Origin: a virus
Taxonomy: Duplodnaviria; Heunggongvirae; Uroviricota; Caudoviricetes
Reading direction: 5' to 3' (one strand)
DNA: 37,278 nucleotides
IMG/VR virus record: IMGVR_UViG_2872698443_000007
In this document: one piece after another, positions 11,195-32,251 of the stretch
Layout of the letters: every line of letters begins with the position of its first letter
Numbering within the stretch: position 1 is the stretch's first letter
The notes under the pieces: model-generated
Databases searched by the model: none
What the model was told of the DNA's origin: nothing
Seen by the model: the letters and a program-made list of their open reading frames with translations, nothing else
Position numbers and translations under genes: made by a program

Positions 11195-11782
11195 TCAACA
11201 TAATGCTGATTCAGGGGATTCATTGCTCTTATTTGCCGGAAATTTTCTATAAATTGTGGAAACACCTACATCAAAAATCAGTGCAATACGCTGTCTTGAT
11301 TCTCCGGCCTCGAGTAAACGTCCAATCTGTGCCCACTGTTCGGTGATCAACTTAGGACGGCGTCCACCTACTCTGCCTTTGGCGCGAGCTGCAGCCAGCC
11401 CCGCCCTGGTACGTTCAACTATCAGTTCGCGCTCCATTTCAGCCAGGGCCCCCATGACATGAAAAAAGAAACGGCCCATTGGGGTACTGGTATCAATACT
11501 GTCAGTCAGGCTTCGGAAATTCACGCCGCGTTCGCGCAGTTCCTCAACCAGAATGACCAGATGCCGCATACTACGCCCCAGCCTGTCCAGCTTCCAGACT
11601 ACCAGAGTGTCACCTGCTGATAATGTTCTGAGCAGTTTTTTCAGTCCCGGTCTGTCGGACTTCGTGCCGCTGATTTTATCCTCAAAAATCCGCTCGCATC
11701 CTGCGCACTCCAGCGCGTTACGCTGCAATTCCGTGTTCTGGTCATTTGTTGACACGCGTACATAGCCAATAAGCATGAGCAT
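11195..11782 (-). CDS. serine-recombinase DNA invertase (Hin/Gin/Cin/Pin family)
   Basis: 195 aa, MLIGYVRVSTNDQNTELQ... with the resolvase-type catalytic Ser motif (YVRVSTNDQ) and a C-terminal helix-turn-helix. Lies immediately outside the invertible tail-fibre segment. Confidence 0.85.
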   Translation of the reverse strand: MLMLIGYVRVSTNDQNTELQRNALECAGCERIFEDKISGTKSDRPGLKKLLRTLSAGDTLVVWKLDRLGRSMRHLVILVEELRERGVNFRSLTDSIDTSTPMGRFFFHVMGALAEMERELIVERTRAGLAAARAKGRVGGRRPKLITEQWAQIGRLLEAGESRQRIALIFDVGVSTIYRKFPANKSNESPESALC

Positions 11783-11803
11783 CCCCCTGAATAAAAACCG
11801 GAG

Positions 11804-12319
11804 ATGATGCCAGTTGCCCGTTATCTCTGCATTTTCATAAACGTTGGTTTGGGAGAAGGTGCTCCAGCTATTGGCGTTCCGTTCTTCTGGCCCTCCGCGG
11901 CAATGCCAAATACTGTAATCGACAGCTGGTCCAGTATGGTGTTTTTGAAGTTCAACGGCGCGAAATTCTCTGCCACTGATTACCCTGTGCTGGCGAAAGT
12001 GTTTCCTTCGCTGGTATTACCTGAAGCCCGCGGTGATTTCATTCGTATCTGGGATGATGGTCGTGGTGTAGATAGTGGACGTGGATTACTTAGTACGCAG
12101 TCTGACCTGATGAAACAATTTACTTTGCAATACTACGGTCCTTCTGCTGGTACTGGAACAAGAACGGTTTTCGCCCTCCAGAGTAATGCGAACGGCATAT
12201 ATACGAGTGGTATTAGTCAGAATGATGGTAGTGGCACCGCTGCGGCTTTTAATGTACCAGGCGGCACCGAAACACGCCCACGTAACATTGCATTCAACTT
12301 TTTAGTAAGGGCTAAATAA
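11804..12319 (+). CDS. alternative tail-fibre C-terminal cassette (promoterless in this orientation)
   Basis: Open frame reading ...INVGLGEGAPAIGVPFFWPSAAMPNTV... from the crossover site; would be fused to the constant part of H after inversion. The functional part probably starts at ~11858; the ORF-track start at 11804 is not a real start. Confidence 0.6.
   Translation: MMPVARYLCIFINVGLGEGAPAIGVPFFWPSAAMPNTVIDSWSSMVFLKFNGAKFSATDYPVLAKVFPSLVLPEARGDFIRIWDDGRGVDSGRGLLSTQSDLMKQFTLQYYGPSAGTGTRTVFALQSNANGIYTSGISQNDGSGTAAAFNVPGGTETRPRNIAFNFLVRAK
11832..11857. repeat. invertase crossover site (left, hix/gix-like 26-bp site)
   Basis: TTTTCATAAACG TT GGTTTGGGAGAA. The half-site GGTTTGGGAGAA (11846-11857) is the exact reverse complement of TTCTCCCAAACC at 13689-13700. 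Confidence 0.7.
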
Positions 12320-12912
12320 TGAAACCTGTTTTTGATAAAAATGGGCTGGCTACAGTGCCGGGTGATATGCGTTGTTTTTATTATGATGCAGTAACATCTG
12401 AATATACTGGCTGGTCTGATGAATATATTAATACTGGTGTAAGTATGCCCGCCTGTTCCACTGGTATTGACCCGGGCGAATACATTCCGGGGAAAGTGGC
12501 AGTATTTACGGGTAAGGGATGGAGCCATGAAGAAGACCATCGCAATGAGACCGTTTACTCAACTGAAAATGGCGCAGCTGTTACAGTGGATTATATCGGT
12601 GCCATCAAAGACGGTTATGTCACGCTTTCACCGTTAACGCCATACGATAAATGGGATGGTGAGAAATGGGTGACAGATACTGAGGCACAACACGGTGCCG
12701 CAGTAGAAGCGGCAGAAGCACAGCGCCAGTCACTGATTGATGCTGCAATGGCTTCCATCAGTCTGATTCAGCTGAAATTACAGGCCGGGCGGAAGCTGAC
12801 GCAGGCAGAAACCACCCGACTTAACATTGTGCTGGATTACATTGACGCGGTGACGGCAACAGATACCAGCACCGCGCCGGATGTCATCTGGCCTGAACTG
12901 CCGGAGGCGTAG
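12319..12912 (+). CDS. alternative tail-fibre assembly protein (U'/G'-like)
   Basis: 197 aa; TAATG overlap with the preceding cassette; C-terminus ...LDYIDAVTATDTSTAPDVIWPELPEA typical of tail-fibre assembly chaperones. Confidence 0.7.
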   Translation: MKPVFDKNGLATVPGDMRCFYYDAVTSEYTGWSDEYINTGVSMPACSTGIDPGEYIPGKVAVFTGKGWSHEEDHRNETVYSTENGAAVTVDYIGAIKDGYVTLSPLTPYDKWDGEKWVTDTEAQHGAAVEAAEAQRQSLIDAAMASISLIQLKLQAGRKLTQAETTRLNIVLDYIDAVTATDTSTAPDVIWPELPEA

Positions 12913-13396
12913 GCCATTCAATATCTGGCGCACTGGAGGAATCAACCAGTTCCAGTGCGTCCAGATAATCAAGCCATGAATTATATTGCGCCAGTTCCTC
13001 ACCTTTCAGACGACCAATAGCAGCCTTTCCTGGCCACTGCTTACTGTTAATATATTCATTAACTCGATTTATGAGTGCCTGTTTTTTTCGTTCCGCTTCT
13101 GACAGTTGTTCTTCATGAGTTAGCGGCGGTACGTCATCCCATGCAGGATAGCCATCATCACCCGCAACTCTCACCTTCCCTGGAGGTGGGGACAGGTACT
13201 TAATAAATATATCCTCATCAACTTCAACTCCATTATGAGGCCATAACCCAGACTCCTTATACTGACTTTCCAGAGTAAATGGGTAAAACATATTAGTTTT
13301 AGCATCGTAAAGATATTTACTCATTTTATCTTCCTGTAGCAAACCAGCGGCAACCAGCGACAGTTGGAACATTGAAGGATGGATTTCCTTTATCAA
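12884..13396 (-). CDS. G: tail-fibre assembly protein (G/U-like), currently expressed orientation
   Basis: C-terminus ...LDYLDALELVDSSSAPDIEWPTPP. 3' end overlaps the convergent alternative assembly gene. The real start is probably the internal Met at ~13324 (MSKYLYDAK...), 2 nt after the H stop. Confidence 0.7.
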   Translation of the reverse strand: MIKEIHPSMFQLSLVAAGLLQEDKMSKYLYDAKTNMFYPFTLESQYKESGLWPHNGVEVDEDIFIKYLSPPPGKVRVAGDDGYPAWDDVPPLTHEEQLSEAERKKQALINRVNEYINSKQWPGKAAIGRLKGEELAQYNSWLDYLDALELVDSSSAPDIEWPTPPAVQAR

Positions 13397-20487: not shown

Positions 20488-21138
20488 TCAGCGGCTGTCA
20501 TTGCGCAGTCTGCGCTCCAGCTGCTGTTTGTCTTTTTTCACGCCACAGCGGGGATCGAGCTGTAACGCATGGTTGAGATGATTAAGGGCGGAAGCCGGGT
20601 TGCTTTCACTCAGGACAGCGCCAATCGCTTTATGCAGACGCGCCCGTGACTGGTCCGGCATATCCAGACCGTCTGTCAGCTCCAGCGTCTGCAGCAACAG
20701 ATCGGCATCAAAGCCGGTGGCGGCAAGCATTGCGCTCTGCGCCGCGTCTGCCATTTCCTCTGCCAGCACGGTCTGCACGTTGCGGTTACCCAGCGGCATC
20801 ACCCAGCCATGACGCAGGGCATGACGCCCGATCTCCAGCGCCCCGGCATAATCTCCGGCATCAATGCGCCACAGCATCACGTACATCAGCACGTCATCCT
20901 GTTGAGCGCCTCCGGCAGCCAGGACGCCCTCCGCCCAGGCGGCATATTTCGGCAGCAGCTCCACCTTGATTTCCGCTTTTTTGACCGTGGACTGAACACC
21001 CTTGAGACGGCGGCGGTCTTCCGCCAGTTGCAGCAGCATCAGGTCATAGCCCGACGCGTGGCGAACACTGCCGCCCTCGCGGGCGGCCTGTTCAGCCTGA
21101 ACGCGCAGGCGATGCTGCCGTGCGGGACTCAGGCTCAT
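20488..21138 (-). CDS. M: terminase small (endonuclease) subunit M
   Basis: 216 aa; follows capsid gene N. Confidence 0.7.
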   Translation of the reverse strand: MSLSPARQHRLRVQAEQAAREGGSVRHASGYDLMLLQLAEDRRRLKGVQSTVKKAEIKVELLPKYAAWAEGVLAAGGAQQDDVLMYVMLWRIDAGDYAGALEIGRHALRHGWVMPLGNRNVQTVLAEEMADAAQSAMLAATGFDADLLLQTLELTDGLDMPDQSRARLHKAIGAVLSESNPASALNHLNHALQLDPRCGVKKDKQQLERRLRNDSR

Positions 21139-22216: not shown

Positions 22217-23050
22217 TCAGCAATTGGTCAGAGTGTCAGCGGGGGCGTTACCGCCTGTTGCACGCTGGCGGTAGTCCTGGCGGCTGTCTTCATGGCTCAG
22301 CTTGTCCACCAGTTCGTTAAAGGCGGTCAGCTGTGCCTGCAGGGCTGTCTCCAGCTCAGACAGGCGTTCTTCCTGCTCAGACAGGGATTTTTCGGTGCGT
22401 GCGCTCAGGTTCTGCTGCTCAGTGGCGACCAGCTCCACGGCCTTATACACATCAGAGAACCGGGCGTCATCGGACTGCTCTTTTTTGGTAAACAGCGCCG
22501 TGACACGGGCAAACAGGGACGGTTTGTCGTCCTGGATTTCTTCCAGTTCGATCACCGTTTCCTCTGCAGCGGTAAAGAGATTGGCAGGATTCTGCTTGCG
22601 GTTTGCCAGTGGGTTATGGGCTGCACTGGCGCTGAATGTCAGCATTTCAGTGCCCAGACTGGCAGGGTCATCAGTGGCAGCCAGGCCGACCAGGTAGGCT
22701 TTGCCCGTATCAGCAAACTTCGGGCTGACTTCCATAGAGGTGAATAATTTCTGGCCTTTTTTCACCAGTTCCACCAGGGATTCCGTTGGCTCAACGTCGG
22801 CATACAGCGCCATCTTGCCTGCCAACGGACCTTCCGTGATTTCTTCAGCAAACAGCGCCGTCACCTTGCCGTAGCGGTTAAAGGTGCTGTCCGGCAGATA
22901 AGACTTGATGTGCTCAAGGTTAATCAGCGCGGTATACACCGCCGGGTTGTAGCTGGCTGCCATCTGTTCCAGCCATTCGCGCTGGATTTCACGTCCGTCG
23001 GTAGTGGCACCTTCCACCCCGATGCGAAAACGCTTTGCTTTCACTGTCAT
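22217..23050 (-). CDS. O: capsid scaffolding protein O
   Basis: 277 aa, acidic with coiled-coil C-terminus; first gene of O-N-M-L. Confidence 0.75.
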   Translation of the reverse strand: MTVKAKRFRIGVEGATTDGREIQREWLEQMAASYNPAVYTALINLEHIKSYLPDSTFNRYGKVTALFAEEITEGPLAGKMALYADVEPTESLVELVKKGQKLFTSMEVSPKFADTGKAYLVGLAATDDPASLGTEMLTFSASAAHNPLANRKQNPANLFTAAEETVIELEEIQDDKPSLFARVTALFTKKEQSDDARFSDVYKAVELVATEQQNLSARTEKSLSEQEERLSELETALQAQLTAFNELVDKLSHEDSRQDYRQRATGGNAPADTLTNC

Positions 23051-23128: not shown

Positions 23129-23146
23129 TGTACCGACAACCACACA
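23129..23146 (+). promoter_or_regulatory. Ogr-type late promoter element (TGT-N12-ACA) in the divergent O/P control region
   Basis: TGTACCGACAACCACACA, centred ~55 bp upstream of the P start codon, the same geometry as the V site. Confidence 0.5.
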
Positions 23147-23192
23147 AACCGCAGGCGGGGAAAGCCTTCATTCAAGACTGTAGGTTTGTGCC

Positions 23193-24959
23193 ATGAACAC
23201 CACACTGACACCCGCAGATCTCGATCCCCGTCGGCAGGCCATGCTGCTGTACTTTCAGGGATACCGCGTAGCCCGCATTGCTGAAATGCTGGGCGAGAAA
23301 GTTGCAACCGTTCACAGCTGGAAAAAACGCGACAAGTGGGGTGACTATGGGCCACTGGATCAGATGCAGCTCACCACCGCCGCACGCTACTGCCAGCTCA
23401 TTATGAAGGAGCACAAAGAAGGGAAAGATTTCAAAGAGATTGACCTGCTGGCGCGCCAGTCTGAGCGCCACGCGCGGATCGGCAAGTTTAACAATGGCGG
23501 CAACGAAGCCGACTTAAACCCTAACGTCGCCAACCGCAACAAAGGCCCGCGCCGTCAGCCGGAAAAAAATGTCTTCACCGATGAACAGATTGAGAAGCTG
23601 GAAGAAATCTTCCATTCCTCCATGTTCAACTACCAGCGCCACTGGTGGGAAGCCGGAAAAACCAACCGCATCCGCAACCTGCTGAAGTCACGCCAGATCG
23701 GCGCGACCTTTTACTTTGCCCGTGAAGCCCTGATTGACGCTCTGCTTACCGGACGTAACCAGATTTTCCTTTCCGCCAGCAAGGCACAGGCCCACGTCTT
23801 TAAGCAGTACATCATCGACTTCGCCAAAGAAGTGGAAGTGGAGCTGAAAGGCGATCCGATGGTGCTTCCCAACGGGGCCACACTGTATTTCCTCGGCACC
23901 AATGCCCGCACGGCCCAGAGTTACCACGGCAACCTGTATCTGGATGAATATTTCTGGATACCGAAATTCCAGGAGCTGCGCAAAGTGGCTTCCGGTATGG
24001 CTATTCACAAAAAATGGCGACAAACCTATTTTTCCACGCCATCCAGCCTGACACACAGTGCTTATCCGTTCTGGTCCGGTGCGCTATTCAACCGTGGGCG
24101 CAATAAAGCCGACAAGGTGGACATAGACCTGTCCCACAGCAATCTGGCTCCAGGCCTGCTGTGTGCAGACGGGCAATACCGCCAGATAGTCACCGTGGAA
24201 GATGCGGTGCGCGGCGGCTGTAACCTGTTCGACCTTGACCAGTTGCGCATGGAATACAGCCCGGACGAATACCAGAACCTGCTGATGTGTGAATTCGTGG
24301 ACGATCTCGCGTCCGTGTTCCCGCTCAGCGAGCTGCAGGCGTGCATGGTGGACAGCTGGGAAGTCTGGACCGACTTTCATGCACTGGCCCTGCGCCCGTT
24401 TGGCTGGCGCGAAGTGTGGATCGGTTATGACCCGGCAAAAGGTACGCAAAACGGCGACAGCGCCGGGTGCGTGGTGGTGGCTCCGCCAGCCGTGCCGGGC
24501 GGTAAGTTCCGCATTCTTGAGCGTCACCAGTGGCGCGGGATGGACTTCCGTGCCCAGGCGGACGCCATCAAAAAACTGACTGAACAGTACAACGTGACCT
24601 ATATCGGTATCGACTCGACAGGTGTCGGTCACGGGGTTTATGAGAACGTAAAAGCGTTCTTTCCTGCCGTCCGGGAGTTTGTCTACAACCCCAACGTTAA
24701 AAACGCCCTGGTACTCAAGGCCTACGACATTATCAGCCACCGCCGTCTGGAGTTTGACGCCGGACACACCGACATTGCGCAGTCATTCATGGCAATCCGT
24801 CGCGCAACCACCGCCAGTGGCAACCGCCCGACCTATGAAGCCAGCCGCAGCGAAGAAGCCAGCCACGCCGATCTGGCCTGGGCAACGATGCACGCACTGT
24901 TTAACGAACCGCTGCAGGGCGAGTCCGCCAATACCAGCAATATTGTGGAGATTTTTTGA
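23193..24959 (+). CDS. P: terminase large (ATPase) subunit P
   Basis: 588 aa; divergent from O; followed by the portal gene. Confidence 0.8.
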   Translation: MNTTLTPADLDPRRQAMLLYFQGYRVARIAEMLGEKVATVHSWKKRDKWGDYGPLDQMQLTTAARYCQLIMKEHKEGKDFKEIDLLARQSERHARIGKFNNGGNEADLNPNVANRNKGPRRQPEKNVFTDEQIEKLEEIFHSSMFNYQRHWWEAGKTNRIRNLLKSRQIGATFYFAREALIDALLTGRNQIFLSASKAQAHVFKQYIIDFAKEVEVELKGDPMVLPNGATLYFLGTNARTAQSYHGNLYLDEYFWIPKFQELRKVASGMAIHKKWRQTYFSTPSSLTHSAYPFWSGALFNRGRNKADKVDIDLSHSNLAPGLLCADGQYRQIVTVEDAVRGGCNLFDLDQLRMEYSPDEYQNLLMCEFVDDLASVFPLSELQACMVDSWEVWTDFHALALRPFGWREVWIGYDPAKGTQNGDSAGCVVVAPPAVPGGKFRILERHQWRGMDFRAQADAIKKLTEQYNVTYIGIDSTGVGHGVYENVKAFFPAVREFVYNPNVKNALVLKAYDIISHRRLEFDAGHTDIAQSFMAIRRATTASGNRPTYEASRSEEASHADLAWATMHALFNEPLQGESANTSNIVEIF

Positions 24960-25990
24960 TGGGAAAGAGTAAGAAAAACCGCACTGCGGCGACGAATCAG
25001 ATCCAGCATAAAAACCAAACTTCAGCCGAAGCATTCAGCTTCGGCGATCCCGTTCCTGTTCTGGACCGCCGAGAATTACTGGACTATGTGGAATGCGTAC
25101 AGATGGACCGTTGGTATGAGCCGCCCGTCAGCTTTGACGGACTGGCGCGCACCTTCCGCGCTGCCGTGCATCACAGTTCCCCGATTGCAGTAAAGTGCAA
25201 CATTCTGACCAGTACCTATATCCCTCATCCTTTGCTCAGCCAGCAGGCTTTTTCGCGTTTTGTGCAGGACTATCTGGTATTTGGCAACGCCTATCTGGAG
25301 AAACGCACGAACCGCTTCGGTGAAGTGATCGCCCTTGAACCTGCGCTGGCAAAATACACCCGACGCGGATTAGACCTGGATACCTACTGGTTTGTGCAAT
25401 ACGGTATGACAACCCAGCCGTATCAGTTCACGAAAGGCAGCATTTTTCATCTGATGGAACCGGATATTAATCAGGAGATCTACGGTCTGCCCGGCTATCT
25501 TTCTGCCATTCCGTCAGCCCTGCTCAACGAGTCCGCCACGCTGTTCCGTCGCAAGTATTACATTAACGGCAGTCATGCGGGCTTTATCATGTACATGACC
25601 GATGCCGCGCAAAACCAGGAGGATGTGAACAACCTCCGCAATGCGATGAAAAGCGCCAAAGGTCCAGGCAACTTCCGCAACCTGTTTATGTACTCGCCTA
25701 ACGGCAAAAAGGACGGGCTTCAGATCATCCCATTGTCAGAAGTCGCGGCGAAGGATGAATTTCTTAATATCAAGAACGTGAGTCGGGATGACATGATGGC
25801 AGCGCACCGCGTGCCGCCTCAGATGATGGGGATTATGCCTAATAATGTTGGGGGGTTTGGGGATGTGGAGAAGGCTAGTCGTGTTTTTGTTCGGAACGAG
25901 CTGATGCCTCTACAAAAAAGATTCCAAGAAGTAAATGAATACTTTGACGGGAACATAATCAGCTTTGAAGAATACAAACTGACCATCTAA
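24956..25990 (+). CDS. Q: portal protein Q
   Basis: 344 aa (same length as P2 Q as I recall); ATGA overlap with P. Confidence 0.8.
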   Translation: MMGKSKKNRTAATNQIQHKNQTSAEAFSFGDPVPVLDRRELLDYVECVQMDRWYEPPVSFDGLARTFRAAVHHSSPIAVKCNILTSTYIPHPLLSQQAFSRFVQDYLVFGNAYLEKRTNRFGEVIALEPALAKYTRRGLDLDTYWFVQYGMTTQPYQFTKGSIFHLMEPDINQEIYGLPGYLSAIPSALLNESATLFRRKYYINGSHAGFIMYMTDAAQNQEDVNNLRNAMKSAKGPGNFRNLFMYSPNGKKDGLQIIPLSEVAAKDEFLNIKNVSRDDMMAAHRVPPQMMGIMPNNVGGFGDVEKASRVFVRNELMPLQKRFQEVNEYFDGNIISFEEYKLTI

Positions 25991-26000
25991 AATAAATAAC

Positions 26001-26024
26001 AAAAAAGAGGGTTCCCCCTCTTTT
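26001..26024. terminator. bidirectional rho-independent terminator between Q and the cargo gene
   Basis: AAAAAA-GAGGG-TTCC-CCCTC-TTTT: hairpin flanked by A-run and T-run. Confidence 0.6.
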
Positions 26025-26029
26025 ATATA

Positions 26030-27796
26030 TTAATTATTATCGTATAACTCCTGAATTTTTGCTGGATTAGCAAAAAACCTTGCAGGATAAGCATTTGGAT
26101 AATTATCTTCGATATAATTTTCTGTCCTAGCTATTAATGCTGCTAAATTAGCAGTGATTTGTGCTGAATCAGGAGCAAGCTGAATGGTACTATTCTGTAA
26201 ATCTGACACCATATTCAACAGCACTGAAGCATAATATCTATTACCATGAGTTATTATTAAATGACGGCGACTATGCGTTGATTTATCTGTAGCTGCTAAA
26301 GTTGAGCTAATAGCACGTTCTATCACACGAAAATGGTTAACAGCATTTATTAACTTGATACCACTTAATCGCGGATTGAAAATTGTTCTATATAATGACC
26401 CTTCAAAATTTTCAAAAAACCTACCACGATTAGATTTTAAAGTTGCAACTATAGTATTATTTTTACTTAAGCAAGCTAGAGCATTCAAAGCCTCATCGAG
26501 ATCAATTACCTTGGCGTTAGACTGTAAATAATCCTCATCGGTTCGCAATAATTGGTATTGATACCCTTCAAGCACAAGCTCTCTCGCCAGTCTATGCTGA
26601 TCGGGTTGTTGTGAAGCAAAATCTCTTCCTAAAACTCTATTCTGGAAATTATTAGCTCTGGTTATTGCATTGGCATTGAGATCATTTACATCATTATTAA
26701 TTTCAATAAAACGAACAGGGACTTTAACTTGATAAATTCTATCGCCTAGCACATCCATAACACTGCCTAAACTACTCACAGTTTGCGCGCCGTTGATCAC
26801 ACTCACATCTTTAAAATCGAAAACCCCTCTTTCAGTGCCTGCAGCTGCGTTTCTTCTGTGAGGAATTAACTCGTTCACTAGTAACGTAATACCGTTATTG
26901 TAAAACCAAAACATTTCTGGATTATCAATTGCAGTTTTTTTTATTTCTTCGTTAACATCTGTCTTACCAAGCATATTTCTTATGTTTTTCGTAAAAAGGC
27001 GGGTTCCATATTGTTTCCACCAATTCCCAACCTGGTCCCCAGCTAAAGTTCCATAAAATGCTCTGTAAGGTTCATTAATAAACCCATAGCGTTCAACTTC
27101 TACGCCATCCAAATCAATTTGACCTCTTGAGCCAGTCTGCAACCAATGGACTAAATCCTCTGATGAAATCAAATGAACTTGAAACCCCCATTCTTCTTTC
27201 GGTGATTCTGTCGGGGTAAACGACGCTTCATTTAATTCACGTTGCCACTCTTGCATATCACGTAAAATATCTTCTGAGGCACCTTTTTTCCCTGTGTGAG
27301 TCATAGCGAAGATAAATTTATAATCAAATGAATTAAGAGCTGCGCTTATATCTGAACTCTTATCTTGAAGAATCTGGTCAAAAAGTTCATATCGTTCATT
27401 CTGAAGTTTTTCACAAGCATCCTTGAAGCACACAAAATCAGGTCTGCTCCAAGTACCATTTCCAGCCTGATTAAATTTGGACTGAACAACTACAACAATT
27501 TTTTCACTATGATTTATGACTATGCCATCAATGCCTCCATCCTCAGAACTGTCGCATACAGACTCACCTGCATGCTTTTCATCAACACCACCAAGTTGAT
27601 ACATCGTAAACGCCGCCAGAGCCCTACTTGCCATTTTAATATTGTAATCTTGTTGACTGGGTTGGCACTCTCGCTTATGAACATAGTCTTCAAACCTTTC
27701 TCTCAAAACACTACCAAGCCTTAGAGCTATAACTTGCGCCGTCGCCGCTGCAGCTACAGCGTTATCCTCAACTCGGAGATCTACAACGAATGCCAT
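26030..27796 (-). CDS. cargo protein with N-terminal Mrr-type PD-(D/E)xK nuclease signature; function unknown, candidate defence effector
   Basis: ~588 aa from the first ATG at 27796 (AAGGA ribosome-binding site 8 nt upstream); the ORF track extends to a TTG at 27823. Motif ...EDGGIDGIVINHSEKIVVVVQSKF... fits the restriction-endonuclease D-x(n)-Q/E-x-K pattern. No Walker A motif. AT-rich relative to flanking phage genes. Confidence 0.6.
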   Translation of the reverse strand: MAFVVDLRVEDNAVAAAATAQVIALRLGSVLRERFEDYVHKRECQPSQQDYNIKMASRALAAFTMYQLGGVDEKHAGESVCDSSEDGGIDGIVINHSEKIVVVVQSKFNQAGNGTWSRPDFVCFKDACEKLQNERYELFDQILQDKSSDISAALNSFDYKFIFAMTHTGKKGASEDILRDMQEWQRELNEASFTPTESPKEEWGFQVHLISSEDLVHWLQTGSRGQIDLDGVEVERYGFINEPYRAFYGTLAGDQVGNWWKQYGTRLFTKNIRNMLGKTDVNEEIKKTAIDNPEMFWFYNNGITLLVNELIPHRRNAAAGTERGVFDFKDVSVINGAQTVSSLGSVMDVLGDRIYQVKVPVRFIEINNDVNDLNANAITRANNFQNRVLGRDFASQQPDQHRLARELVLEGYQYQLLRTDEDYLQSNAKVIDLDEALNALACLSKNNTIVATLKSNRGRFFENFEGSLYRTIFNPRLSGIKLINAVNHFRVIERAISSTLAATDKSTHSRRHLIITHGNRYYASVLLNMVSDLQNSTIQLAPDSAQITANLAALIARTENYIEDNYPNAYPARFFANPAKIQELYDNN

Positions 27797-27976
27797 TAAT
27801 TTTTCCTTATAGAATATGTACAACGTTAGCAGTGATTAAAAGGTTACTCGTTAAGCGGAAATTGTACTACAACATTCTACTAAATATGGATATATCAATG
27901 AGTAAGAACTCATCTTTGCTAACTCACATACATTGTTAAAAATACTTAGCTTCGCTGTTCACCCCGTCGCCGCGCG

Positions 27977-27995
27977 CTCGTATCCCCGCCACGCC
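27977..27995 (-). other. putative cos site (cohesive end)
   Basis: Minus strand reads GGCGTGGCGGGGATACGAG. The first 13 nt match my recollection of the 186 cohesive end GGCGTGGCGGGGAAAGCAT (P2: GGCGAGGCGGGGAAAGCAC); overall 14 of 19 vs 186. Orientation points toward Q, as in P2. Confidence 0.5.
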
Positions 27996-28042
27996 TGCCC
28001 GCTTTATGTAGTGGTTTTCATGCGCCTGCATGACATAAGCAA

Positions 28043-28066
28043 AGGCCCGCCATTCCTAGCGGGCCT
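28043..28066 (-). terminator. hairpin downstream of the 290-aa cargo gene (possible terminator)
   Basis: Perfect 8-bp stem AGGCCCGC / GCGGGCCT with an 8-nt loop, ~100 bp past the gene stop; the following T-run is weak. Confidence 0.35.
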
Positions 28067-28167
28067 CAGCTAAAACGATCCTCAAACGATCATGCGGATT
28101 CATGCGGCATAGTCATGCACTTGTGTGGTTACGAAGGAATATAGTTGCGAAAATCGATTAAAATGCC

Positions 28168-29040
28168 TTAAGCTCTCTTAATCAACCCCTTATGCGTTGC
28201 TTTGGTAAGATAAGCTAATTCTTTAGGCCCCTTATCTCTAAAGCCCACCCATTCTGGTTGGATTTTTATAAAACTTGGAATTGCGGTTGCCAAGGCTGTA
28301 ACCATACCGGGAATAATACCGCCTGAATAACCAGCAATAGCAGCATGGTACAACGGTTTTAAAAATTCCATAACCTGCCCACCATCTACTTCTGGATTGG
28401 CTTTGACTCCCATTCTGATAGGATTTCTCCATTTCCCTTCGATAGCTTTATCAAGATTAACTACAGCCTCTTGTAATAAAGAAAAATTTTTAGCCCTCGT
28501 TAGATTAGGGTCTCTAGAATAAAGGACTTCAGTATACAGTTTTTCTAAGTACTCATGTAACGCATTAAGATCATCCTGACAATCATCTTTAAAACGTAAT
28601 ATATCTTCTATATGAGCATCTTTATCAGGAATTCTCAGAACATTAAACAACTCCAATCTCAACTGAAGGGCCGTTTTCTGTTCTTTATCATATATTAAAT
28701 TTTCCCCTGTTTGATGAAAGTGCCAATAAGTAGCAGGCTCGTTCTTCCTGAATTCATCCAATGTCTGCAACTGAAATTCCGTATATAAAAATGGAAAGTC
28801 TTGGATATTCAGCATACCATCATGTTTCATAATAGGTCTACGTAATACCCCATTATCTAATAATTCTTTTTCTTTAGGCACAATCGAGTGAATATTTTCA
28901 CTATCTAGAATAACCACATCATCCCAGTAAAAGCAGAAATAATTAATATCCTGCTCAGTTAAACCTGCCCCAAGATAGACCGTACTATTATTTCTATGAA
29001 AACTCATTTCATTAGGATTAGCTACAATGCCACGTTTCAT
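28168..29040 (-). CDS. hypothetical cargo protein, function unknown (position of P2 tin/old)
   Basis: ~290 aa from the ATG at 29040 (AAGGAG ribosome-binding site 5 nt upstream): MKRGIVANPNEMSFHRNNSTVYLGAGLTEQ... Strongly AT-rich. C-terminal hydrophobic stretch GGIIPGMVTALATAIPSFI. No recognisable catalytic motif. Confidence 0.6.
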   Translation of the reverse strand: MKRGIVANPNEMSFHRNNSTVYLGAGLTEQDINYFCFYWDDVVILDSENIHSIVPKEKELLDNGVLRRPIMKHDGMLNIQDFPFLYTEFQLQTLDEFRKNEPATYWHFHQTGENLIYDKEQKTALQLRLELFNVLRIPDKDAHIEDILRFKDDCQDDLNALHEYLEKLYTEVLYSRDPNLTRAKNFSLLQEAVVNLDKAIEGKWRNPIRMGVKANPEVDGGQVMEFLKPLYHAAIAGYSGGIIPGMVTALATAIPSFIKIQPEWVGFRDKGPKELAYLTKATHKGLIKRA

Positions 29041-29251
29041 TCTTGCTCCTTGATAAGCATACACATTTTAAGAATGACATATATTCTAATAATTTCAATA
29101 CATTATGAGTTATAACTAAAAGTGCAGCATAGGTCTCGCCCTGATAGATAATCAAGTGATTACTGTCTTTTTACTTATGGTTAACGCCTCTCAAGGCTCG
29201 CGGTTCAACCTTGCTGACGCCAGAAGCAGGTTCAGACGCCAGCAACGTTTC

Positions 29252-29485
29252 TTAATGCAGCCAGCTGTCGTCTTCCCACACCTTCTGCATAATTTTCATC
29301 ACTTGTTTTCTTTCTTCGTCCAGTTGCAATCCGGTAAGTTCCACACCGTTAGAGCTACCTTTGCGGATACGAATTACCGTTTTGGGATACAGGGGGCGCA
29401 GATTGCGGTAAAGCTCGGATTCAAGGGCGTCCAGTGTAGACTGGCTAATCTTCTGCTCTTTATCGATCATTATTTCAATGCGCAT
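29252..29485 (-). CDS. DinI-family protein
   Basis: 77 aa from the ATG at 29485 (GAGGTG ribosome-binding site): MRIEIMIDKEQKISQSTLDALESELYRNLRPLYPKTVIRIR...WEDDSWLH, resembling DinI in length and pattern (MRIE..., acidic C-terminus with W). Confidence 0.7.
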   Translation of the reverse strand: MRIEIMIDKEQKISQSTLDALESELYRNLRPLYPKTVIRIRKGSSNGVELTGLQLDEERKQVMKIMQKVWEDDSWLH

Positions 29486-29495
29486 AAAAGTCACC

Positions 29496-29684
29496 TCAGC
29501 TGATGACATCCATTGAGCGGTTGTATTCGTGGGTTCTGATTTTTGCCATGAGTTCATCTGTCAGTTCAGAAACCCACTGCAGAGCCAGCCCCTTCTCTTC
29601 ATCACTACACTCACTAGCCGCTACAAGCTTAAGAAAAAAATCAATGCGCTGGAGCTTCAAAGACTCCAAAAAATAGTCCTGCAT
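29496..29684 (-). CDS. small protein, first gene of the LexA-controlled operon; candidate Tum-like antirepressor
   Basis: 62 aa, AGGAGG ribosome-binding site; directly downstream of a LexA box and upstream of the dinI-like gene. Confidence 0.5.
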   Translation of the reverse strand: MQDYFLESLKLQRIDFFLKLVAASECSDEEKGLALQWVSELTDELMAKIRTHEYNRSMDVIS

Positions 29685-29724
29685 CTTTCCTCCTATGACA
29701 CCAAAGCAATACTGTATACATAAC

Positions 29725-29744
29725 CACTGTTTATATTTACAGTA
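29725..29744. promoter_or_regulatory. LexA operator (SOS box)
   Basis: CACTGTTTATATTTACAGTA has CTGT-N8-ACAG with an AT-rich spacer, close to the consensus TACTGTATATATATACAGTA. Lies in the promoter region of the 62-aa/DinI-like operon. Confidence 0.7.
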
Positions 29745-29836
29745 TATAATAATCTTACTGATGTAAAACGTTTTTTTACGCTCATCAGCCTGATATGCCT
29801 GGTATTATTAAGAGCACGAATTGTTAACCCGCGTAA

Positions 29837-32251
29837 TTAATACAGGTTTCGCCACTTATCATCTTCCTGCAAACGCTGGTTCCGATAGAAGATACGCAGG
29901 CCTGCTCCTGACGGAATACTGCCGCCGCGAAGGAGTAAATCGACCTCTTTCTCGCTGCCATCAAATCCCCTGGACTTCAGTTCATACACGAGCTGCAGTC
30001 GCTGATGGTCTGTAATTCGCTGTTTGTAGTCTTTACGCCGTTTCGGTTTCACCAGGCGTAACCTTGCTGCCAGTTCCCGGCGCTCTTTTTTGCTCATACT
30101 GTGCAGGTAATCGTGCAACTCCTTGTCATCCATGCGGGTGATATCCGTTCTGGTATCTCCATCAGCTGATTTGTCTTTCCCTTGTTGGTACAAATTTTCA
30201 GCAAGGGGACAGTTATTGCCACGAGTCCAAGGGGCGCAAGCGCCCTGGTCGGCTGCCGCCTCCTGAACGTCAACGGCCTTACGAACCATTTTCCACTTCA
30301 CTGCATGAGTGCAGATCTTGCCCTCTGCAATGGGTGACCAGATGCCATAAATACGAATACCGTGATCACCATAGGCGGTCGGCTCTTCGTTGATTTCATA
30401 AGCGGTTCTGATCAAGTGATATTTGCGGGGAACCAACACGCCGCCCTGCTTCATAATGTAGGTGGCAAAACAGCCAGCATCAGCAGCAGCCAGAATGGCA
30501 TCAAGACGCGGATCATCCAGTACCGGCGCACCTGCTTTTTTGTCACCCTGCTGCCTTGCCGCCTGACCAGCCAGCAATCGCAGTTCACGGTAAGCCTGAC
30601 GCCCCGGAATGCCAAAGAAGCGGAATTGCTGAACACGATGCAGAGACGCCCAGGCATTAACGTATTCAGCGTTATCACGCAGGGATTTACCCGTTTCCTT
30701 GCTGATCTCGCCAGCCAGACCACGCCCGTCAATGTTCTTACTGATGTATTTCGCGATGTAGCTTGTCGGCGTTCCTTTGCGCGGGTTAATCAGCTCAGAC
30801 TTAAAGCGTGGCCCCGTGTTATTGCCCAGTTCCTCGCGGTCTTCACGGATGGCAAACTTACGCAGTAATGCAGTGATGGCGCGGCGGTCTTTTTTACGCA
30901 TGAAGCACATGAGATGCCAGTGCACAGTACCGTCATGATGCGGCTCAGCCACCCGCACGCCATACCACCGCAATCCGGCTTTGTGCATCGCCTTACGAAA
31001 TGCAGCAAACATGCCGACCAGATAATCACTGCTTTGTCTTACCGTCGCATTTGTCCAGGTCGGGTTTGGTCTGCCGTTATTGAGCGTGGAATGGAAACGT
31101 GACGGACAGGTGATGGTGTAGAAAACGGCGCAGTCACCGCGCATTTCCGCGATAAGCTCCAGACCTTTAACGCAGGCCATCATCTCATTGCGGCGATGTG
31201 CCGGGTTGCTGCTGCTGGCGTTTACCACATCTTCCATATCCAGCGTGTCTCCGTCTTCGTTCACCAGTTCATGAGAACGGAAAAACTCCAGCGACTTGCG
31301 GCGCTGCTCACGTTTATGCGTCACTGCTTCATAGCTGACATAGGGAGATGCTTTTTTGCTGACCAGACAGACAGCACGCAACTGCTCTTCCCGCCATTCG
31401 CAACGCATCTTCCACAATTTTCGATACCACCAGTCGGCGCAAAGCATACGTGCCAGCGAACCCGGTATGAGTTCATAGGGCACAGGTTTGCGGCGGTTTC
31501 TTTTCCGACGAAGTTTCTCAAACGCAGGCGGGATAACATCCAGACGCAGGGTTTCCGCAGCCACCTTTTCCCATGTCTTGCGGATTTCTTCTGGCTTAAC
31601 GTCATCGGTGGCGTACAAATCACCACAAGCGGCCTCAAGACACATGCTCATATGCGCTGCTACCAGGGTGGACAGGCGTTTCACCTGATCCTGGCTCATT
31701 TCAGGCAGGATCAGCAGCCCCTCCAGCCCTTGATGGCTTGCCATAAAACGGAAAGAAACAGATAGCTGACTGTCACGTACACAATCCAGTCGCTCCAGGC
31801 ATGGCTTAATCGTCTCACGCAAATAGCGGGAATAAGCCTTTGGCCTGCCCAGGCTGCTGAAGTATTCGATACGTTGCATCAGCGGCTTGCTGATATGAGA
31901 AGGCTGGGCGCTGACATCTGCCAGAATGACCATGTCCGGGTTAAAACGCTGCTGCTCATGCGCCAGCTTTGCCCGGCTAATGAGCTTATCCTGCTCCATT
32001 TCGCGCTGGACAGGATCACGGGATTCATTAAAGAAATAACGCTCCCAGACCTGCTCACTCAGTGCCTCGCGGCGCAGTTGTTCCTGCTCGTTATCGGCAG
32101 CGTACAGAGTGATCAGGTTTGAAAGTGCAGACTCCGGCGCAACTTCCGCCGGATCCAGATAAGGGTTAATGGCCTTTTTCGGGCCGTTCCATGAAAATGC
32201 TGCGGCAGCCTCGTTAAAGCCGCTAGAGTTGCTCATATCGTCATGACTCAT
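29837..32251 (-). CDS. A: replication initiation endonuclease A (rolling-circle)
   Basis: 804-aa protein in the early operon downstream of dam. Confidence 0.75.

Follow-up and report, generated by a model that had tools for sequence, protein, structure and literature searches.

The question raised by this locus is whether a 19-nt GC-rich sequence at 27977–27995 of the window (the whole 37,278-nt stretch of DNA that was analysed) is the cos cohesive end of a prophage and, if it is, whether its position some 2 kb from the portal gene matters for packaging. The preliminary description had proposed a cos site here, separated from Q by a cargo gene, and had regarded the arrangement as unusual and as one that could affect packaging.

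A cohesive-end candidate in a P2-like prophage

The window is a segment of an E. coli chromosome with a P2-like prophage, and in E. coli S163-2 the element lies between ybjL and rcdA. The features of the prophage to which the candidate site has to be related are listed here from left to right; a Dam methylase gene comes after gpA in this gene order.

20488–21138, minus strand: terminase small (endonuclease) subunit, gpM homologue (Pfam Phage_term_smal, 2.2e-40; PGAP 'terminase endonuclease subunit')
22217–23050, minus strand: scaffold gpO
23193–24959, plus strand: terminase large (ATPase) subunit, gpP homologue (Pfam Terminase_5, Terminase_6N and Terminase_6C)
24959–25990, plus strand: portal, gpQ homologue (Pfam Phage_portal; PGAP)
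25999–26026, no strand assigned: hairpin with T-runs where the convergent Q and AIPR genes are separated by 39 bp; it likely terminates transcription from both directions, as the counterpart of P2 tQ and 186 tW
29252–29485: DinI-like gene, between gpA and the DUF6236 cargo
29496–29684: small ORF, between gpA and the DUF6236 cargo
29837–32251, minus strand: replication endonuclease, gpA homologue, A-side boundary of the hotspot discussed below (Pfam Phage_GPA, 3.5e-128; PGAP)

The plus strand at 27977–27995 reads CTCGTATCCCCGCCACGCC, and its reverse complement on the minus strand is GGCGTGGCGGGGATACGAG. A 13-nt run in common with the cohesive end of phage 186 had been noticed on the minus strand, and both the sequence and record NC_001317 bear this out, with GGCGTGGCGGGGA, bases 1–13 of the 19-mer, also opening the cohesive end of 186, GGCGTGGCGGGGAAAGCAT. 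Over its full length the 19-mer is identical to that of 186 at 15/19 positions and to that of P2 (GGCGAGGCGGGGAAAGCAC) at 14/19. Four of its last six bases differ from 186, and we infer the position of the 3' nick from spacing only. The orientation toward Q had also been read correctly; it is the same as in P2 and 186, with the portal gene on the opposite strand.

To judge how far such a resemblance could arise by chance, the sequence was compared with shuffled versions. The 19-mer is present as a single copy in the window with up to three mismatches allowed, and matches were obtained in 0/100 shuffles. When one mismatch was permitted, the 13-mer by itself matched at least once in 14 of 100 shuffles and is only moderately improbable. 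Since the 13-mer alone is weak against chance, the case for cos rests on the wider context, and the chance test of the 13-mer was replaced by a profile test of the whole cos region.

Architecture and conservation of the putative cos region

The circular cos junctions of P2, 186 and P4 were rebuilt by joining the right and left ends of each record, and were then compared with the window. Using an nhmmer profile made from these three junctions (−135 to +45, with offsets here and throughout counted from the first base of the 19-mer), we found one significant match in the window, at 28120–27964 on the minus strand (E = 2e-15), the next having E = 3.4. When the sequences were anchored on the 19-mer and compared without gaps from about −30 to +25, identity was 41/56 to P2, 42/56 to 186 and 41/56 to P4. 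A cos core of ~55 bp in P2, P4 and 186 is credited to Ziermann & Calendar 1990 in PMC9594776, PMC5694545 and PMC3931495, and on this alignment the region 27970–28025 of the window is its apparent counterpart. The 13-mer falls inside this conserved core, which disposes of the concern that its match to 186 might lie outside the cos block. The features of the region are as follows.

27971–28120, minus strand: conserved cos island, 150 bp, offsets −125 to +24 (conservation, nhmmer)
28113–28118, minus strand: GCATGA box 1, offset −123 (same offset in 186, P4 and Yersinia phage YenM_201.16; −122 in P2)
28100–28105, minus strand: GCATGA box 2, offset −110 (same offset in P2, 186, P4, YenM_201.16 and pro483)
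28090–28095, minus strand: GCATGA box 3, offset −100 (conservation pattern as for box 2)
28042–28067, minus strand: GC-rich 11-bp hairpin, then UUUGCUU (folding)
28018–28023, minus strand: GCATGA box 4, offset −28, start of the core (at −28 in 9/9 cos regions compared)
27970–28025, minus strand: putative equivalent of the cos core, made up of GCAT-AAAACC, AAGCGGGCA, the 19-mer and a conserved CGCGCG (ungapped comparison)
27977–27995, minus strand: predicted 19-nt cohesive end (cosN equivalent), 5'-GGCGTGGCGGGGATACGAG (by homology, with inferred cut positions)

The most regular element of the region is the set of GCAT boxes. Their offsets in the window are −123, −110, −100 and −28, and these are the offsets in 186 and P4 as well; in P2 only the first box differs, lying at −122. 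All four are also found, at offsets within one base, in ENT90 (Erwinia; box 2 at −111) and YenM_201.16 (Yersinia), while pro483 (Escherichia) and YO139_2 (Ralstonia; box 2 at −109) have the boxes at −110, −100 and −28 within one base and are missing the one at −123. The spacer between the boxes is unrelated in sequence among the window, P2, 186 and P4. There are 22 copies of GCATGA in the 37-kb window and five of these are inside 101 bp at the cos island, where an inverted copy also occurs on the plus strand near box 4 (28028–28033). In the Aeromonas phage vB_AsaM_LPM4, the core and the −28 box are kept and the distal boxes are gone; their place is taken by three GGATC repeats ~135 bp upstream of the 19-mer of this cos, possibly a recognition array of another kind.

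The GC-rich hairpin sits between the distal and proximal GCAT boxes. Its folding energy is −26.9 kcal/mol (z = −4.2), a stability equalled in 0/200 shuffles. It was found by separate folding and is not among the hits of a terminator scan of the region. By eye, GC-rich dyads of other sequence can be read in P4 and 186 at a similar offset. The hairpin may act as a weak intrinsic terminator against read-through from the A-side cargo, or may be a protein-binding dyad. The window has minority alleles within it, those at offsets −63, −60, −58 and −49 being common to 4–13% of relatives. For the boxes and the hairpin alike, conservation alone suggests a role in packaging.

To place the region among its relatives, IMG/VR was scanned for the exact 19-mer, which returned at least 120 loci. 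An alignment from −200 to +139 around the 19-mer was then assembled from these and other loci and comprised 121 sequences, 119 of them unique. Among these 119 unique sequences of the matches listed, per-position identity is mostly 0.8–1.0 within −125 to +24 and falls to ~0.1–0.5 outside the island on both flanks; on the Q side of the 19-mer the same sequences have only six conserved bases, CGCGCG. The limits of the cos island are sharp and the flanks are hypervariable on both sides. One locus, IMGVR_UViG_3300011853_000021, has two opposed exact copies of the 19-mer 3.2 kb apart (3447–3465, minus strand, and 6704–6722, plus strand), with a portal gene 1.2–1.5 kb past each, and could represent two neighbouring elements or a misassembly.

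A 13-nt sequence identical to the P2/P4 cohesive-end core, AGGCGGGGAAAGC, also occurs elsewhere in the window, at 23153–23165 on the plus strand. The start codon of gene P is 28 bp downstream of this sequence, which comes just after a TGT-N12-ACA dyad at 23129–23146 that we take to be of the kind known from Ogr/B-activated late promoters. The sequence is kept in relatives (24 occurrences in the loci examined) and is missing from the equivalent regions of P2 and 186. In view of its place beside the dyad and its absence from P2 and 186, we rejected it as a packaging site, and the resemblance is probably coincidental.

Together with the 13-mer hits in shuffled sequence, this second match is what could be said for the view that the 19-mer is itself a chance GC-rich resemblance and that the true packaging site lies elsewhere, for example next to Q. 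Set against it are the single significant profile match, the retention of the 150-bp island in the 119 unique sequences among the matches listed, and the box offsets common to P2, 186 and P4. The match at 23153 also loses its weight through the adjoining dyad, which P2 and 186 lack there. Neither the search with up to three mismatches nor the profile search found a second cos-like site in the window, especially beside Q, and nothing resembling cos lies in the 39-bp stretch that separates Q from the AIPR gene. We give the chance explanation practically no weight. The region has the features of a P2-type cos, namely a 19-nt GC-rich sequence of the form GGCGNGGCGGGGA, the ~55-bp core, the box architecture on the A side, and the position and orientation relative to gpM, gpP and the portal gene; the use of the box architecture as a mark of cos is proposed here from the present comparison and has no literature source. 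On these similarities, 27977–27995 is very probably the cos cohesive end of the P2-like prophage.

A genuine cos could still be a relic, out of use in a prophage that is defective or never induced, and PGAP does annotate one partial tail-protein fragment, at 11840–12101. This fragment lies beside a recombinase gene (11195–11776) and two opposed tail-fibre assembly genes, and the stretch as a whole (11195–13324) suggests an invertible segment of tail-fibre genes (host range) and not decay. All essential P2-type genes are intact, those for both terminase subunits, portal, scaffold, capsid, tail, lysis, replication, repressor and integrase being present and open. The cos island is as in deposited phages (97.8% identity to Cartapus over 93 nt). 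E. coli S163-2 is 100% identical to the window from ~1169 to the window end, and the Q-to-A segment (25600–29900) has 100% identity in three complete E. coli genomes, S163-2 included; E. coli TUM9754 and DETEC-P61 are further carriers of the identical locus. The prophage measures ~33.9 kb, an approximate figure that depends on a 14-nt att-like repeat only, against 33.6 kb for P2. It is apparently complete, P2-like and of the Fels-2/SEN8/Cartapus type, and we consider it improbable that its cos is a disused one. At the left end of the window, 1–1168 holds an IS-type DDE transposase ORF (144–1112) where S163-2 has nfsA, ybjC and grxA.

Cargo genes on both sides of cos and the distance to Q

With the 19-mer assigned to cos in this way, we turned to its surroundings. 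The distance from the 19-mer to the stop codon of Q (25990) is 1986 bp, and a cargo gene does lie in between, as the preliminary description had stated; its length was given as 590 aa and is 588 aa by PGAP. A second cargo gene flanks cos on the gpA side.

26030–27796, minus strand: Q-side cargo, 588-aa AIPR-family (AbiU-like) protein (Pfam AIPR, 1.5e-31; PADLOC AbiU, 5.8e-24; PGAP 'AIPR family protein')
27797–27970, minus strand: AT-rich non-coding leader of the Q-side cargo (the homology of relatives stops at 27970)
28168–29040, minus strand: A-side cargo, DUF6236 family (Pfam DUF6236, 4.4e-21; PGAP)

From its similarity to AbiU, the AIPR gene is predicted to be an abortive-infection defence gene. 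Its leader presumably holds the gene's own promoter; a scan of 27797–27970 with a consensus promoter gave no convincing sigma-70 site. The DUF6236 gene had no match among the PADLOC models and is a candidate for an uncharacterised defence or accessory gene. Copies 99% identical to it are found in the same position at two IMG/VR loci, and it occurs in E. coli genomes too. Both genes are low in GC (0.36–0.43 for AIPR and 0.34–0.38 for DUF6236, against 0.53–0.61 for the backbone), and the cargo modules, 26027–27970 and 28121–29251, total ~3.2 kb, similar to the old-tin cargo region of P2.

The interval from gpA through cos to gpQ is the P2 defence hotspot of Rousset 2022 (PMC9122126), which appears again in PMC13586616; during the 1990s the cosL-Q position had already been suggested to be a hotspot (Dodd & Egan 1996 and Nakayama 1999, as cited in PMC5694545). 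Across related prophages, we found the gene content between gpA and gpQ to be hypervariable. Among 111 listed loci, comparison of the 400 bp flanking the island on each side distinguished 91 types on the Q side and 66 on the A side, which occur in 105 different pairings. In E. coli genomes there are 1275 that match, with highly diverse neighbours. In the complete genomes, this AIPR gene has HNH, TIR or HEPN genes as its partners on the opposite side of cos, and a PIN gene accompanies this DUF6236 gene. Both cargo genes of the window, AIPR and DUF6236, belong to the known gpA–gpQ hotspot, and ~2 kb of accessory DNA adjacent to cos is the usual and already described layout of the lineage.

The cos–Q gap, taken as the distance between the 19-mer and the stop codon of the portal gene, was measured in the 86 listed IMG/VR loci with the exact 19-mer and a downstream portal gene. 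It ranges from 147 to 3525 bp in these loci (quartiles 819, 1602 and 2034 bp), is at most 250 bp in nine of the 86, and exceeds 2 kb in 23. The 1986-bp gap of the window is typical among these listed relatives. Comparable gaps were seen in Fels-2 (1861 bp, with one 565-aa gene between cos and Q), RE-2010 (1892 bp, with a distantly AIPR-like 'abortive infection protein') and SopEPhi (1701 bp, with two genes), all three of which we take to be functional phages. SEN8 has two genes in ~2.2 kb, and Cartapus has one DUF4145 gene in ~0.8 kb. In P2, 186, pro483, ENT90 and LPM4, cos and Q are ~170–200 bp apart, and a spacing this short characterises certain genera and not the family as a whole. The view that the layout is unusual was not supported by these comparisons, with Fels-2, SopEPhi, RE-2010, SEN8 and Cartapus having it as well, the gap exceeding 250 bp in 77 of the 86 listed loci (median 1.6 kb), and the hotspot being described in PMC9122126 and PMC5694545.

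It could nevertheless be argued from the gap of only ~170 bp in P2 and 186 that a genuine cos displaced 2 kb from Q would package poorly or differently. The relatives speak against this: 90% of the listed loci have a gap above 250 bp, and gaps reach 3.5 kb. To our knowledge, nothing that is known of terminases requires the portal gene in cis. The SEN8 genome, with its 2.2-kb gap, was sequenced from isolated virion DNA and the assembly was confirmed by restriction digest and PFGE (PMC5427200). The satellite P4, whose record has no portal gene, has a homologous cos from which the P2 terminase packages it (PMC9122126), and in phiCTX and AP3 cos adjoins the integrase gene (PMC5247547). Conservation on the Q side is limited to 6 bp among the matches listed, and the total length of the prophage is near that of P2. 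We regard an effect of the displacement on packaging as very unlikely, and the suggestion that separation from the portal gene is a packaging problem found no support.

How packaging from this site would proceed can be outlined by homology. As in P2, 186 and P4, the gpM and gpP terminase would recognise the 150-bp cos island, make nicks staggered by 19 nt and package a unit-length genome, which would leave the 5' overhang GGCGTGGCGGGGATACGAG on the Q-proximal (left) genome end. Conserved cos sequence extends over ~125 bp on the gpA side of the nick versus 6 bp on the Q side, and this asymmetry suggests that the recognition determinants are probably on the A side; they would probably be the phased GCAT boxes, perhaps with the hairpin. 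Q-side DNA beyond +24 would be free to vary, so that the low-GC AIPR module would be tolerated between cos and the Q terminator, with the second cargo, DUF6236, sitting on the other side of cos. Sequence beyond +24 would be irrelevant to packaging, and total genome length would be the only constraint expected.

We put forward, tentatively, that cos in these phages is one-sided: ~125 bp on the gpA side, with phased GCAT boxes around a GC hairpin, would serve the small terminase subunit as a cosB-like platform, and the island would be the pivot of the hotspot. It is about as plausible, and likewise somewhat short of probable, that this platform has been retained across a range running from phages of E. 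coli to P4 satellites and phages of Ralstonia and that more than 6 bp on the Q side is unneeded. With the same reserve, the fixed 150-bp island may be what splits the gpA–gpQ hotspot into two sub-loci that are brought together in many combinations. Part of this, the one-sided array together with the split of the hotspot, may already be described. Two points are perhaps noteworthy, namely the sharp limits of the island with GCAT boxes in phase family-wide, and the division of the hotspot into two sub-loci that occur in many combinations. For annotation, the genome ends of the prophage would be placed at 27995/27996. The 150-bp island could serve as an anchor for parting Q-side from A-side cargo when P2-like prophages are mined for defence genes, and could be useful in the design of minimal cosmids with this type of terminase.

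Comparison with known systems

The feature is already known, with the 19-mer published for SEN8, the layout found in deposited phages and the hotspot published. The closest systems include SEN8 (KT630647, Felsduovirus, Salmonella), which has the identical 19-mer; annotated 'putative cos site', it is the exact start of the SEN8 record, whose last base corresponds to window position 27996. Its A-side block, aligning at the record end, is 89% identical to the window over 125 nt. The genome announcement gives the cos as ggcgtggcggggatacgag (PMC5427200). In SEN8 the cargo is a hypothetical protein and an HNH-like protein, in contrast to the AIPR protein of the window. Cartapus (NC_070909, Elveevirus, Escherichia) is annotated with a 59-bp 'putative cos site, homologous to the cos of P2 phage' that includes the same 19-mer, and it is at the end of this record that the A-side block with the identity given above aligns; its cargo is the DUF4145 protein, versus AIPR in the window. 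The CGCGCG after the 19-mer is kept in both phages. A search of literature and records for a phage with the exact 19-mer and experimentally mapped ends gave 'putative' annotations only, those of SEN8 and Cartapus, which had been assigned by annotation or homology. The proposed identity of the site as cos is well supported by homology, the 19-mer being the annotated and published putative cos of SEN8 and lying within that of Cartapus.

P2, 186 and P4, the cohesive ends of which were reportedly sequenced in the 1970s, are like the window in the 19-nt GC-rich GGCGNGGCGGGGA motif, the ~55-bp core and the GCAT boxes, and P2 and 186 also in the orientation toward Q. They differ from it within the 19-mer (at five of 19 positions in P2 and at four of the last six in 186), and their spacer from −95 to −40 is unrelated to that of the window. 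In P2 and 186 only ~170 bp, terminator included, separates cos from Q, and accessory genes are on the A side only (old and tin in P2; tum and orf97 in 186), whereas the window has them on both sides. As in the gpA–gpQ hotspot described in PMC9122126, the genes beside cos in the window are variable accessory genes of low GC, many of which are defence-related in that hotspot. The accessible text of the hotspot papers treats the region as one single interval, whereas in the window and the 111 listed loci it consists of two sub-loci split by the 150-bp cos island.
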